This document shows, in pieces, positions 54,037 through 64,000 of a stretch of DNA of 64,000 nt (positions are counted from its first letter, which is position 1; each line of letters opens with the position of its first letter). Made by a program: the position numbers and the translations under genes. This DNA is from a virus (Duplodnaviria > Caudoviricetes). The notes under the pieces were generated by a model. The model was not told the origin of the DNA. It was given only the letters and a program-made list of their open reading frames with translations, and ran no database searches. The stretch covers positions 63,066-127,065 of IMG/VR virus record IMGVR_UViG_651703017_000001, one strand, 5' to 3'.

Positions 54037-54103
54037 TGTTGACAGTCAACTAGAAACATGTTAAACTAAGGTAGAAGATAACTTAAAAGGAGGAAGATAA
54101 GAG

Positions 54104-58894: not shown

Positions 58895-59686
58895 ATGAGA
58901 CAGGTAAAAGTATTCGCATTAGCTAAAAAAGATGCAGTAGGAACACAAAGAGTACACGCAGGGGACACGGTGAGGTATGTTGTAGAGCGCCCAGCACATC
59001 ATGCAGGAGAAACAGTAGGGTGTGAGATGGTCCTATCTGAAACCACAGTCGTAAAAAGCGCAACAATTAAAGCGGTCTTTGAGGAGACAGCTACCCACTG
59101 GTACGTATCTATTGATGAAGTTTCAGAAGCTCAACTGTGCCGTCCCCGAGTAGACGAACTCACTAAGAGCATAATTCGTCAAGAGGTGAGGAAAGGTATC
59201 AAAGAAGAGAGGGAACGTGTGGAGAAGGAAGCACTCGATGGTATGACGTTAAAAGCGCAGGCACGTGCGTTAGAGGACTGGAAGAAGCACCCACGTAACC
59301 GTTTATTCGCTGTTACTAATAGTGAGCTAGACGAACTTTTAAACGCTCTTGCTATTAAAGGACCAAGTGCCATTAAGACCACCCTTAGCAAGGTCCTCTT
59401 TGAGGCAGGTCGTAAAGGGGACTCATTTAACAAGCATGATTGTGGGTGGCGTGAGGGGGCTGACGTACCTCTGAGTGTCCTAGGGGCGAATACACGCACC
59501 TACACTGTTACCTTGAATGGGGAGGAGGGTCGTCGTAACGCTACAATCCTTATTCACATTAACCCGGACACCTTAACTGGTGTAGTAGAGCTCGAGATTG
59601 GTCCAATGTATCACTTTATTGAGACTCTTGAGTTTCGTAGTGACCCAATTGAAAGACTTAATGAGTGGGGTGGAGAAGATGAATAG
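58895..59686 (+). CDS. Hypothetical protein
   Basis: 263 aa, RBS AAGGAGG. Confidence 0.7.
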   Translation: MRQVKVFALAKKDAVGTQRVHAGDTVRYVVERPAHHAGETVGCEMVLSETTVVKSATIKAVFEETATHWYVSIDEVSEAQLCRPRVDELTKSIIRQEVRKGIKEERERVEKEALDGMTLKAQARALEDWKKHPRNRLFAVTNSELDELLNALAIKGPSAIKTTLSKVLFEAGRKGDSFNKHDCGWREGADVPLSVLGANTRTYTVTLNGEEGRRNATILIHINPDTLTGVVELEIGPMYHFIETLEFRSDPIERLNEWGGEDE

Positions 59687-60020
59687 GACAATAAAAAGAG
59701 CAGTAAAGAGAGTACTACGGAGCGTAAACGAAAAAGTCAACCCAGAGGATTACCACCTACCTCTCCCGGAACCTGTGCCACTAGTACGTACCACTACTCC
59801 TAAACAGGTACAGAAGATATATGCAAGGCAGGTTGTGAGTGCGCCTGCGTACGACAATTACGAGGAGTGGCAAAAAGAGGCAGTCAAGCGTAATGTTGTC
59901 CGAGCTATGCTCCCAGAGATAGAGGAAACTGTCCGGATTAATGTGATTTACAACCCTGAGCACGATGAGCAAGTAGTGAACGCTGTCTTAGAAGTGGTAT
60001 CTCCAATAATAGAAGAATAA
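59679..60020 (+). CDS. Hypothetical protein
   Basis: ATG 59679 after GGGGTGGAG. Confidence 0.65.
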   Translation: MNRTIKRAVKRVLRSVNEKVNPEDYHLPLPEPVPLVRTTTPKQVQKIYARQVVSAPAYDNYEEWQKEAVKRNVVRAMLPEIEETVRINVIYNPEHDEQVVNAVLEVVSPIIEE

Positions 60021-60112
60021 ACAAGGAGGGGAAAACACACCACAAATGAAACACATTGAGACATTATAAAGTACGTAACTAAGAATCTAAAGGGGCTCTT
60101 TTTGTTTTGTTG

Positions 60113-60142
60113 TTGACAGGTCAAATGGGGGTGTGTTACACT
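60113..60142 (+). promoter_or_regulatory. Phage-type sigmaA promoter driving tnpB
   Basis: TGTTGACA-18-TACACT (with TG) then AAG; promoter and leader closely resemble those at 54039. Confidence 0.7.
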
Positions 60143-60178
60143 AAGTTTAGAAAGTTAATTAAAAAGGAGGGAGATAAA

Positions 60179-61318
60179 ATGCTAAGATACAAAGCCTATA
60201 AGTTTAGAATCTATCCAAATGTAGAACAAGAGATACTTATTGCTAAAACAATTGGTTGCTCTCGTTTCATCTATAATCATTTTCTTGGCTTATGGAATGA
60301 AACATATACTCAAACTGGAAAAGGTTTAACATTTAACGCCTGTTGTGCGATGCTTCCTAAGATGAAAAAAGAAGAAGAAACAGAATGGCTAAAAGAAGTG
60401 GATAGCAGGGCTATTCAATCTTCGTTAAAACACTTGGCAGACGCTTATTCTCGTTTCTTTAAGAAACAAAATGCTAGACCTAAATTCAAGAGTAAAAAGA
60501 ACCCAGTTCAAAGTTATACTACTAAACGTACAAAGACTAATATTGCTATTGTTGATAAGAAATTGAAGTTACCTAAATTGGGACTTATTAAGTTTTCACA
60601 AAGTAAAGTTCTTAAAGGACGTATTATCAATGCTACTATTTCACGTAGACCAAGTGGTAAATACTTTGTTTCATTGCTATGTGAAGAAGAAATATATGAA
60701 CTACCTAAAGTAAATTCTTCAATAGGTATTGACTTAGGTATTGCTGATTTTGCTATCCTTTCGGATGGACAAAAAATTAACAATAATAAGTTTACTTCTA
60801 AAATGGAGCAGAAACTCAAACGTGAACAGCGTAAGTTATCAAGACGTGCATTAGTTGCCAAAAAGAATGGTATTCAACTATTTGAAGCCAGTAACTATCA
60901 AAAACAAAAATGTAAAGTCGCAAGACTTCATGAAAAAGTAATGAATCAACGTACTGATTTTCTCAATAAGTTGAGTACAGATATTATCAATAACCACGAT
61001 ATTATTTGTATTGAAAACTTAAATGTTAAAGGTATGTTGAAAAATCACAAATTATCTAAAAGTATTTCTGATGTGTCTTGGTCTGAATTTGTATCTAAAT
61101 TACAATACAAGGCTGATTGGTATGGTAAAGAGATAGTTAAGATTGATAGATGGTTTCCATCAAGTCAAATTTGTTCTGAATGTGGAAATAATGATGGAAA
61201 AAAAGGCTTACACATTCGTGAATGGACTTGTAGTCATTGTAACGCTAATCATGATAGAGATATTAATGCTAGTAAAAACATATTGACCGAAGGTCTAAGA
61301 TTACAAGTGTTAGCTTAG
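60179..61318 (+). CDS. tnpB: TnpB RNA-guided endonuclease (IS200/IS605/IS1341 family)
   Basis: KAYKFRIYP HTH; RuvC GIDLG, IENL, DRDINA all intact; CSEC..CSHC zinc finger; start ATG 60179. Confidence 0.95.
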   Translation: MLRYKAYKFRIYPNVEQEILIAKTIGCSRFIYNHFLGLWNETYTQTGKGLTFNACCAMLPKMKKEEETEWLKEVDSRAIQSSLKHLADAYSRFFKKQNARPKFKSKKNPVQSYTTKRTKTNIAIVDKKLKLPKLGLIKFSQSKVLKGRIINATISRRPSGKYFVSLLCEEEIYELPKVNSSIGIDLGIADFAILSDGQKINNNKFTSKMEQKLKREQRKLSRRALVAKKNGIQLFEASNYQKQKCKVARLHEKVMNQRTDFLNKLSTDIINNHDIICIENLNVKGMLKNHKLSKSISDVSWSEFVSKLQYKADWYGKEIVKIDRWFPSSQICSECGNNDGKKGLHIREWTCSHCNANHDRDINASKNILTEGLRLQVLA

Positions 61319-61448
61319 ATAAAATATAGAACCGCAGGGACTGCGGGGATAGCTTAGTAAATAAGAGAAACCTCTGTGAGTAAAGAAATACGCTTGCAAG
61401 TATGCTCTGTTCCTAAGAATCTCGTGACTTCAGTCATGAGAGGTTCAC
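60191..61448 (+). mobile_element. IS605-family-derived tnpB-only insert with right end (no tnpA, no recognisable left end)
   Basis: More AT-rich than flanks; right-end hairpin CTCGTGACT-TC-AGTCATGAG then AGGTTCAC; left boundary approximate. Confidence 0.8.
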
Positions 61449-61468
61449 AGAAAGAAACCAGAGGTAAT
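61328..61468 (+). ncRNA. Predicted omegaRNA scaffold plus guide (guide from 61449: AGAAAGAAACCAGAGG)
   Basis: CCGCAG-GGA-CTGCGG hairpin, internal stem and right-end hairpin; established TnpB architecture; 5' end uncertain. Confidence 0.7.
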
Positions 61469-61688
61469 TGACGTACTTCACTACGTAGACATTCCGATTG
61501 GAAAAGCAATAGGGTTCTGTAACGGGAAAGCACATATGACCGTTAGCGCTAACCTACTTGTAAGAACACCCGACCGAGTAGCTAGAGTACACGTAGGAGA
61601 TTATATAGTCAGACAGGAAGACGGTGTGTGTGACGTGTACAGCCCCGAGGAGTTCCATAAAATCTATGAAGTATTAAAGGAGGGTTAA
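61449..61688 (+). pseudogene. 3' part of a phage gene interrupted by the tnpB insert
   Basis: Start-less open frame RKKPEVIDVLHY...VGDYIV....DVYSPEEFHKIYEV, matching the common phage YRKKP.VIE..GDYI..F.KTYE family. Confidence 0.75.
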
Positions 61689-62806: not shown

Positions 62807-63082
62807 ATGGTATTAAATATAGATAGTAGTATAGAAGATATTAAGAATTGGGTAACAGAAGAAGATATACTAAAGGTAATAAGTGCAATGGAATATATCA
62901 CAAAAGAAGACCTAACAAAAGAAGACCTAACAAAAGAAGACCTAACAAAAGAAGACCTAACAAAAGAAGACCTAACAAAAGAAGACCTAACAAAAGAAGA
63001 CCTAACAAAAGAAGACATAGATAGTATAAGAGAAACAGATAATAGTATAAACAAAACACTCAGTGATAGTAGTAGTAATTAA
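62807..63082 (+). CDS. Acidic protein with (TKEDL)n repeat
   Basis: RBS GAGGAG 8 nt before ATG; repeat is in frame. Confidence 0.55.
   Translation: MVLNIDSSIEDIKNWVTEEDILKVISAMEYITKEDLTKEDLTKEDLTKEDLTKEDLTKEDLTKEDLTKEDIDSIRETDNSINKTLSDSSSN
62900..63019 (+). repeat. 15-bp tandem repeat ACAAAAGAAGACCTA x8
   Basis: Seven perfect copies plus one with a single mismatch. Confidence 0.97.
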
Positions 63083-63099
63083 AGTATACAGAACATATA

Positions 63100-64000
63100 A
63101 GGTACACTAACAGAAGGTAATTAGCATAGTATCAGAAGTCGTAGTATACAGTATCAGAAGGCATAGCTGATTGATGAGGGTAAGGAGTAAGGGTAAACAA
63201 GTAGGTAGGTAAATAAGTAAACAAACAAGTAGACAAGTAAACAAACAAGTAAGTAAGCGAACGAGTAAATAAGTAAGTACACAGGTAAGTAAACAAGTAA
63301 ATGAACAGGTAAGTAAACGAATAAGCAAGTAAGTAAACGAACAGACAAGCAAGTAGGTAAGCAAACAAACCAACAAGTAAACAAGTAAGTAAACGAATAG
63401 GTAAGTAAGTAAACAGGTAAATAACTAAGTAAGTAAACAGACAGGTAAGTAACTAAGTAAATAAGTAAGTAAACGAACAAACAGACAGGTAAGTAAACAA
63501 ACGAACAGTATAGATAGTATACAGTATTAGAAGGTGTAGCTGATTGGTAAATAAGTAAGTAAGTAAGTAAGTAAACGAACAAACGAACGAACAGTATAGA
63601 CAGGTAAATAAGCGAACGACTAAGCAAGTAAACTAATAGGTAAGTAAATAAGTAAGTACATAAACGAATAAGTAAGTACACAGGTAAGTAACTAAGTAAA
63701 TAAGTAAGTACATAAACGAATAAGTAAGTACACAGGTAAGTAACTAATTAAACAAGTAAACGAACGAATAGACAGGTAAGTAAGTAAACTAATAGGTAAG
63801 TAAATAAGTATACAAACGAATAAGTAAGTAAGTAAGTAAGTAAACAAGTAAGTAAACAAACAAGTAAGTAAACAAACAAACAGACAAGTAAGTAAACGAA
63901 CAAACGAATAGTATAGAGAATGTATAAAGGGGTAGAGTAAATAGGAGGTACATTATCAGAAGGTATACTAACAGAAGGTATAGTATACAGTATCAGAAGG
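63100..64000. repeat. Non-coding strand-asymmetric low-complexity tract of 4-nt units, punctuated by a 20-bp motif; continues past the window end
   Basis: AAGT/AAAC/GAAC/AGGT/AAAT units; TAGTATACAGTAT(C/T)AGAAGG at 63142, 63515 and 63981; perfect 52-bp duplication 63641-63744. Confidence 0.9.

Follow-up and report, generated by a model that had tools for sequence, protein, structure and literature searches.

TnpB is the ancestor of Cas12, and its accepted role is transposon retention. By an established rule, the guide of TnpB is the sequence that lies 3' of the right end (RE) of its element. For TnpB2 of ISGst2, the target-adjacent motif (TAM) was determined experimentally as TTTAT, and the enzyme was highly sensitive to TAM mutations (10.1101/2023.03.14.532601). 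In ISDra2 TnpB, Y52 and S56 contact TAM position -1, Q80 position -2, K76 position -3, F77 and T123 position -4, and N124 position -5, and cleavage is abolished or reduced when these residues are replaced by alanine (PMC10097598). Furthermore, N4 of ISDra2 TnpB stacks on and stabilises the first heteroduplex pair, and aromatic residues were enriched there in a mutational scan (10.1101/2025.02.11.637750). Transposon non-restorative homing between co-infecting phages is listed in a 2026 OMEGA review as a theoretical possibility (PMC13565253). In this work, a window of 64,000 nucleotides (nt) of viral DNA was analysed (positions 63,066 to 127,065 of IMG/VR record IMGVR_UViG_651703017_000001). The window makes up the right half of a virus record of 127,065 bp, and the named phages closest to it are ADU4 and BtpYZU04, both from Brochothrix (Herelleviridae, Klumppvirus). 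We show that the tnpB-omegaRNA-RE half of a Brochothrix IS200/IS605 element sits in this lytic, Klumppvirus-like phage, where it separates the start codon from codon 3 in the gene that comes first after a phage promoter of the sigma-A type. A literature search, with supplements outside its scope, returned no paper on the tnpB of this phage and none in which a phage TnpB lacking a left end (LE) was shown to home. In the available text of a Brochothrix campestris phage paper, transposases are mentioned only in a genomic island (PMC12562394).

Capture of tnpB behind a phage promoter

The tnpB gene at 60179-61318 is the sole copy in the 127,065-bp genome. It is foreign to the phage, because its guanine-plus-cytosine content of 30-33% lies below the 40-49% of the flanks and window positions 60178-61447 are 95% identical in nucleotides to the copy of B. 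campestris DSM 4712 (locus L004). TnpB is 94% identical in amino acids (aa) to that of the B. campestris copy, and the omegaRNAs are three substitutions apart. The bacterial copy is a complete insertion sequence (IS) with a TTTAT flank, LE, tnpA, tnpB and RE. Its LE hairpin is CTCGCGAC-TTTA-GTCGTG and its RE hairpin CTCGTGAC-TTCA-GTCATGAG, with the tip ..GGTTCAA; its tnpA encodes 133 aa (Y1_Tnp, E 1.6e-41), and the tnpA stop codon lies within the Shine-Dalgarno (SD) sequence of tnpB. The phage locus is composed of the following features.

60113..60142, plus strand: phage promoter TTGACA-18 nt-TACACT, TG-extended; phage, not transposon, sequence
60166..60181, plus strand: phage SD sequence GGAGGG with the ATG at 60179-60181, a start shared with tnpB
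60179..61318, plus strand: tnpB, 379 aa, with intact RuvC triad D185/E279/D361 and zinc finger
61285..61447, plus strand: predicted omegaRNA scaffold (RNAalifold consensus), overlapping the 3' end of tnpB
61285-61295, 61332-61346, 61353-61417 and 61420-61441, plus strand: predicted omegaRNA stems
61420..61447, plus strand: subterminal RE hairpin CTCGTGAC-TTCA-GTCATGAG and tip ..AGGTTCA
61448..61464, plus strand: presumed guide (C)AGAAAGAAACCAGAGG, about 16 nt 3' of the RE tip, equal to the 5' end of the decapitated phage gene
61446..61688, plus strand: rest of an 82-aa phage gene, with ATG-TTG and the TA of codon 3 lost and its first in-frame start at ATG 61536

The boundaries of the insert were mapped by BLAST and alignments. 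Homology to the sister phages is continuous through a terminator-like hairpin, the promoter and the SD sequence to the ATG, where it ends at 60181 (ADU4) or 60186 (BtpYZU04), and it picks up again at 61446 (ADU4) or 61448 (BtpYZU04). Homology to the nearest bacterial IS copy extends from 60178 to 61447. The bounds of the two homologies thus place the insert at 60182-61445/7. The left junction falls within an AATG microhomology (60178-60181) and the right one within CA/AC, in place of the ACA that a sequence-only reading of this DNA had proposed for both. The phage gene's own ATG now serves as the start of tnpB.

The same reading had stated that tnpA and the left end are missing, and the searches agree with it. 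No match to the TnpA of the source element was found in the 127-kb genome, the LE hairpin is absent from the window even with up to three mismatches, and the 184-nt LE sequence has no match in the 127,065-bp genome; with a 96-nt part of the LE, two genomes among 38 were found. No normal left end lies upstream, since sister-phage homology is unbroken to the ATG, and comparison with the bacterial copies of the IS confirms that the left end was lost in the phage. Among the hallmarks of a mobile IS200/IS605 element, the TAM-preceded LE hairpin and tnpA are lacking here, and the RE hairpin with ..GGTTCA is present, with its last A either lost or exchanged for C. The cassette cannot transpose because LE and tnpA are gone, and the mapped junctions support the earlier view that tnpB was captured by a phage expression cassette and no longer moves.

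The promoter has 10 of 12 matches with TG in a promoter scan. It belongs to a class (TTGACA-N-TGnTAnAnT followed by an SD sequence and a start codon) with seven plus-strand members in the window; the site at 54039, to which this promoter and leader had been likened, is another of them. It is conserved in ADU4 and BtpYZU04, there ahead of other first genes. From the sigma-A-type promoter only, we infer that tnpB is probably expressed early. The same promoter and leader are followed by three different first genes, namely tnpB in the window, the 82-aa gene in ADU4 and a small gene, ORF106, in BtpYZU04 (compared over window 59676-60020, L001 2185-2345 and L002 2120-2876). The terminator-like hairpin at 60079-60100 is weakened in the window (AGAATC..GGCTCT) compared with the sisters and metagenome contigs (AGAGCC..GGCTCT; 60085/60086). 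ADU4 is without the 114-aa gene found in the window at 59676-60020, and BtpYZU04 has two near-identical SD-ATG stretches, which would permit deletion of ORF106 by recombination.

The TnpB protein has Pfam matches above cut-offs to HTH_OrfB_IS605 (residues 1-48, equal to profile positions 1-47 of 47), OrfB_IS605 and Cas12f1-like_TNB, and its residues 1-373 align to ISDra2 TnpB (E 2.9e-93). The alignment places D185, E279 and D361 at the catalytic D191, E278 and D361 of ISDra2, and both CxxC pairs of the zinc finger are there (CSEC..CSHC), which bears out the claim that the three RuvC acidic residues and the zinc finger are retained. The locus therefore has what defines a TnpB: HTH/REC, WED and RuvC domains, the D-E-D triad, the zinc finger, and a predicted scaffold that overlaps the 3' end of tnpB and ends at the RE. 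The 3' end of tnpB and the following 130 nt are predicted to form the omegaRNA scaffold of the IS family. The consensus fold from seven copies has 35 pairs, 8 of the 35 with compensatory changes (RNAalifold), and the single-sequence fold has z = -2.1. This covarying fold is consistent with the earlier claim that the omegaRNA hairpins are kept. In Rfam, the segment 61326-61442 weakly resembles Ref70 ('Enterococcus sRNA 70'), at 30 bits (E 0.013) where the gathering score is 115, and this curated sRNA family may itself be the TnpB omegaRNA of enterococcal IS copies. The right end had been described as retained to 61448. Its hairpin and ..GGTTCA are indeed kept, but the RE of the window, ..GAGAGGTTCA, terminates at 61447, and the tip reads TTCA-C, with the final A of the canonical TTCAA absent and C61448 next. 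Since the guide of TnpB is the sequence 3' of the RE, it would lie at 61448..61464. No other perfect match to this guide was found in the phage genome, to which the scan was confined, and matches with three mismatches were as frequent there as with the control.

Filled and empty alleles and the family TAM

A start-less phage gene had been reported to resume past the right end, and this is what the sister phages show: homology restarts at 61446/61448 with no start codon. The remainder is 94% identical to the ADU4 and BtpYZU04 genes, without frameshift or stop, and its ratio of non-synonymous to synonymous substitution rates (dN/dS) is about 0.14-0.20. It differs from ADU4 by 14 nt and 5 aa (dN/dS about 0.14) and from a full-length allele (P0162, MLY..) by one aa. 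In ADU4 the shared leader drives the 82-aa gene, which starts ATG TTG CAC AGA AAG AAA CCA, and in BtpYZU04 it drives ORF106, after which the 82-aa gene comes behind an SD sequence of its own that is nearly the same. The intact gene had been reconstructed as 83 aa, MLRY-RKKPEVIDV.., by joining MLRY to RKKP. This join was rejected, because MLRY/MLRH is the N-terminus of TnpB and the true alleles are ML(Y/H/C)RKKPEV, of 82 aa. The empty alleles read ATG TTG CAC/TGC/TAC AGA AAG, and the caveat that MLRY might be TnpB's own N-terminus was well placed, as bacterial copies read MLRH. The gene does not belong to a common phage family as had been stated: only 3 of 50,697 phage records match it, together with 2 protein clusters in 5.8 billion proteins, and in these searches the family was seen only in Brochothrix phages. 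Its product has no Pfam match.

The locus is polymorphic for presence and absence of the cassette, since ADU4 and BtpYZU04 are empty and both filled and empty contigs occur in food metagenomes. At least half of the sampled words of the stretch occur in 16 runs from nine studies, and no RNA sequencing run contains the stretch; the sequences used, from four runs of four studies (X1, X5, X7 and X10), are all contigs. The leader-tnpB junction is bridged by contigs from two other studies, namely X10 record 11 (1,376 nt, covering 60139-61448, with a 3-nt insertion in the leader as its sole gap and none within tnpB) and X7 record 26 (371 nt, covering 60142-60513). Among the pieces listed, phage-borne tnpB contigs occur in X7 and X10 and empty alleles of the TAC type in X1 and X5; the coverage gaps of X1 and X5 prove nothing. 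What follows the RE in the X10 contig is not the 82-aa gene but the 3'-terminal 33 nt of a gene of the ORF106 type (GAAAGATTGAATTAG..); BtpYZU04 has ..ACGTAC ahead of this sequence. A third context is given by P0173, a protein from a 1,569-nt contig, which begins with 24 residues encoded by window 61376-61447 (the RE) and goes on with ORF106 from residue 5. Each of the three right junctions lies right after ..GGTTCA and each replaces phage ..YGTA, written here before the slash.

Window: TTGTA/CAGAAAG (5-nt motif TGTAC)
X10: ACGTA/CGAAAG (5-nt motif CGTAC)
P0173: GTGTA/TATGCA (5-nt motif TGTAT)

Random rearrangement would hardly yield such exactness at all three RE-tip junctions. The leader-tnpB fusion circulates in wild phage populations, and the cassette is found there in at least three right-hand contexts. 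In viral contigs, the right, left and X10-type junctions had no matches and P0173 had no relative; the conserved target 24-mer had no matches in metagenome contigs.

The earlier proposal to look for empty-site alleles in relatives was carried out, with breakpoints mapped, and six types were found, written here with the presumed guide match after the comma.

TTG CAC,AGAAAG: ADU4; X1 joint
TTG TGC,AGAAAG: BtpYZU04; X7 joint
TTG TAC,AGAAAG: X1
TTG TAC,CGAAAG: X5
TTT TAC,AGAAAG: X5
TTG TAC,AGAACG: X1

Of the 15 alleles listed of 39, seven have Y at residue 3, six have H and two have C, and no other position of the 82-aa gene is tri-allelic. Codon 3 occupies TAM positions -3 to -1, so TAC to CAC alters TAM -3 and TAC to TGC alters TAM -2.

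The family TAM is TTTAT, on the basis of the LE flanks, a filled/empty pair in Nitunavirus phages and the ISGst2 experiment. TTTAT lies 15-17 nt 5' of the LE hairpin in all six copies (L004, L005, L006, L007, L092 and L093), of which L092 is a hairpin-only mini-element and L093 a metagenome contig end from a search with an LE 30-mer (one contig end matched). The RE tip is TTCAA in seven of seven close bacterial copies. Four Nitunavirus phages carry a canonical tnpB-only IS that separates the portal gene from the prohead-protease gene (SPG24 870-2405, L089; BSP10 around 870, L098). The empty site of BSP10 reads ..AAAATTTAT/GAACAAAG, and the filled site of SPG24 reads TTTAT/LE...tnpB...GTAGTTCAA/GAACAAAG. 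This pair, from a 61%-identical relative, fixes both element boundaries and assigns the last A of TTCAA to the element. Many sisters, among them BSP10, phiNIT1, Grass and the SBSphiJ series, match just 55-56% of the query at this locus, which suggests the empty state, and TAM and target were read directly only in BSP10. As an observation in its own right, SPG24/BSP10 is a cleaner natural filled/empty pair for TnpB homing between lytic phages than the window.

Several further members and derivatives of the family occur elsewhere. In Unity, a temperate Paenibacillus phage, complete tnpA and tnpB (L087 520-2470; TnpB 73% identical) lie between endolysin and antirepressor genes. In a Listeriaceae genome (G034), L092:1490-1545 on the minus strand reads TTTAT/16 nt/CTCGCGAC-TTTA-GTCGTG/AGAGGTTCAA without a gene; its single hairpin, flanked by an LE foot and an RE tip, suggests a non-autonomous, PATE-like derivative. 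The B. campestris chromosome also carries two orphan relics, a remnant of omegaRNA and RE of about 155 nt (L085; 77% identical) and a 29-nt exact RE hairpin with tip (L086), and both terminate in TTCAA.

Immediately 5' of the guide match, none of the six empty-allele types has the canonical TTTAT. The five bases there are TGCAC, TGTGC, TGTAC (three types) or TTTAC, of which the last is the closest. A homing endonuclease finds its recognition site intact in the empty allele; here the guide match is intact and TTTAT is not present. The claim that the cassette targets the uninterrupted gene of co-infecting relatives therefore fails for an enzyme with the canonical TAM.

The TAM pocket and the explanations of the locus

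The contact map of ISDra2 fits this IS family, as TTTAT-flanked copies have S76 and Unity has K76 with the LE flank TTGAT at the same spacing, in agreement with the ISDra2 rule that K76 reads G at TAM -3. The pocket of the window TnpB consists of Y4, F52, C56, S76, R77, Q80, T118 and K119, and that of B. campestris has H4, Y52, S56, I77 and QFTNN. Among the 120 best homologues, Y52 is found in 120, S56 and N119 each in 119, H4 in 116 and I77 in 102. The nearest relatives, P0133 and P0001, have 5 differences each from the window, and H4Y, Y52F and S56C are among both sets. The phage-borne X10 contig shares F52, C56 and R77 with the window but has H4 and N119, and the phage-borne X7 contig has H4, Y52, S56 and I77. 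Since F52 and C56 are in the X10 contig and not in the X7 contig, they arose after capture, barring recombination. In the 16 closest sequences, variation occurs at 5 of the 7 TAM-contact positions and at 32 of the other 372 (Fisher p = 1.2e-4). The idea that all 11 changes on the phage branch are phage adaptations was rejected in part, because KRTKT, KRTNT and R77 are standing variants.

We tentatively hypothesize that the cassette is an active selfish RNA-guided nuclease whose TAM would have moved from TTTAT to YGTAY and which would cut TGTAC (MLY) alleles; the evidence for the shift to YGTAY is circumstantial. In this mechanism, cassette-free TGTAC (MLY..) alleles would be cut, after which the cassette would be copied in or the alleles would be excluded. 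The CAC (H3) and TGC (C3) alleles would be spared, as would the cassette's own site TTCAC, which differs at -4 and -3. R77 would read G at -4, F52, C56 and Y4 would reshape the -1/+1 pocket, and K119 would relax -5.

A wider form of this hypothesis, in which the re-specification of the TAM to YGTAY is combined with an arms race with the interrupted gene and with junctions that record re-aiming of the guide, is doubtful. In the arms race, MLY (TGTAC) alleles would be cut and then converted or excluded, and escapes would arise in one step as CAC (TAM -3) or TGC (TAM -2), or as the seed variants CGAAAG and AGAACG. The guide would be re-aimed when the RE tip is joined to a new YGTA site, perhaps by a host TnpA acting in trans on the RE alone.

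Several points weigh against a re-specified nuclease. The variation at residue 3 of the small protein may be neutral. R77, KRTKT and KRTNT are standing variants of the closest IS population and not phage-specific, and KRTKT occurs in P0124, whose open reading frame (ORF) is continuous from the C-terminus of TnpA. Of these changes, Y4, F52 and C56 alone look specific to the lineage, and P0132 has F52 as well. The changes from Y to F and from S to C are conservative, and drift or early decay could equally have produced them. The dN/dS of TnpB is 0.19 against B. campestris, and the 8 coding differences listed against X10 are 4 non-synonymous and 4 synonymous; the pairwise dN/dS and the 4:4 split do not separate constraint in the phage stage from constraint before capture. 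Moreover, the cassette's own site TTCAC matches TTTAT at 3 of 5 positions, at least as well as the common empty alleles in either guide register, and the P0173 junction (..GGTTCA/TAT GCA, compared with ..AGT GTA/TAT GCA in BtpYZU04) is known from the protein alone.

The main rival, almost as probable, is an inert passenger, namely an IS605 relic or illegitimate recombinant that is transcribed in the phage operon, keeps its requirement for TTTAT and hitch-hikes until it decays. An enzyme that kept the TTTAT preference would find nothing to cut among the known relatives and would be inert, which accords with the lack of TTTAT in the empty-allele types and of any other match to the guide in the phage genome. 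Both junctions are non-canonical (AATG on the left, an RE tip without its A on the right), TnpB relatives are frequent phage cargo (430 of 50,697 records, some of them complete, as in Unity, and some canonical tnpB-only insertions, as in SPG24), and the changes at the near-invariant Y52 and S56 could reflect lost constraint. However, the ORF and the omegaRNA are intact in the window, no insertion or deletion is found in tnpB of the X10 contig, and the aa changes fall together in a single functional pocket rather than all over the protein. The three exact RE-tip junctions at YGTA also speak against an inert passenger, as the probability of GT recurring twice is about 0.004 if the junctions are independent.

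It is improbable that the cassette was exapted for a job other than cutting rival alleles, such as tuning the downstream early genes or acting as a host-chromosome nuclease with omegaRNAs of host IS copies. The cassette does head the operon, so that transcripts reaching 61691 onwards pass the omegaRNA, TnpB processes its own mRNA into omegaRNA (PMC10278001), the phage-encoded regulators known as TldRs arose by domestication of TnpB relatives (PMC10705468), and host genomes carry copies that are 92-95% related, whose scaffolds would be compatible. On the other hand, the RuvC triad is intact, unlike in TldR, the guide has no match elsewhere in the phage, and a regulatory target has no specific support. 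An ordinary complete IS whose upstream LE, perhaps together with tnpA, was overlooked is the usual assumption for phage genes annotated as 'transposase' and has canonical cases in Unity (tnpA and tnpB) and SPG24 (LE and tnpB), but it is hardly credible here, being refuted short of an assembly error by the continuous sister homology and the unmatched LE hairpin, 184-nt LE and TnpA.

Three routes could have produced the insert: canonical insertion at a TTTAT allele with a deletion afterwards, illegitimate recombination, or deletions anchored at the RE. In the first case, a TTT TAT allele, one synonymous transition from the observed TTT TAC, would offer a canonical TTTAT/AGAAAG site, and LE and tnpA could have been lost afterwards through an AATG-mediated deletion. 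Such a simple canonical history is at odds with the tip base and with both other junctions.

Farther along the window, 62900-63016 is a perfect 15-nt tandem repeat of 7.8 copies that encodes (TKEDL)n within a 91-aa ORF. Degenerate repeats rich in AAGT/AAAC come next (63193-63911, about 700 nt) and extend to the end of the window.

Comparison with known systems

An intact TnpB with a guide RNA but without transposon ends, placed behind the promoter of a lytic phage, would be an intermediate between a transposon accessory and a free-standing homing or exclusion nuclease. The locus offers testable material in its natural filled and empty alleles, three guide junctions, few substitutions of TAM residues and target alleles that differ in the TAM. 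If the re-specification is true, it would be a natural case in which an RNA-guided homing element of lytic phages has changed its TAM and re-aimed its guide. Even if the cassette is inert, it shows how a phage can take over one half of an IS of its host genus, joined at a start codon and at the RE tip.

The window TnpB shares its architecture, catalytic residues, omegaRNA at the 3' end of tnpB and RE, and 3' guide with ISDra2 TnpB (PDB 8bf8/8exa/8h1j) and ISGst2 TnpB2, and the bacterial copies of its element share the TAM TTTAT with ISGst2. Compared with the TnpB systems of IS200/IS605 elements, the window is without LE, tnpA and the last RE base, a phage promoter and leader are fused to it, TAM-reading residues are substituted, and the canonical TAM is absent at its cassette-free alleles. 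The B. campestris copy L004 keeps TTTAT/LE, tnpA and the tip TTCAA, whereas the window does not. The Nitunavirus phages SPG24, BSP9, BSP18 and BSP21 (IS1341 type) are also Herelleviridae and carry a tnpB relative (61% aa identity) without tnpA, as the window does; unlike in the window, their insertion is canonical, TTTAT/LE (about 330 nt)...RE TTCAA/GAACAAAG, and sisters such as BSP10 keep TTTAT and the target. The free-standing homing endonucleases Seg and Mob of T4, which act in intronless homing and marker exclusion, are likewise present or absent at one locus, use phage signals and could cut an allele without the nuclease gene. In the window, by contrast, recognition would be RNA-guided with a short motif, and cutting and biased inheritance are predictions. 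TldR is likewise a TnpB derivative outside a transposon that works with a guide RNA, and some TldRs are phage-encoded (PMC10705468); TldRs have lost the RuvC residues, whereas the window TnpB keeps D185, E279 and D361 and so does not belong with them. To these systems the locus adds a mismatch between the family TAM and the empty alleles, clustered changes of TAM residues, three YGTA-adjacent junctions of the RE tip and an allele series at the TAM position.

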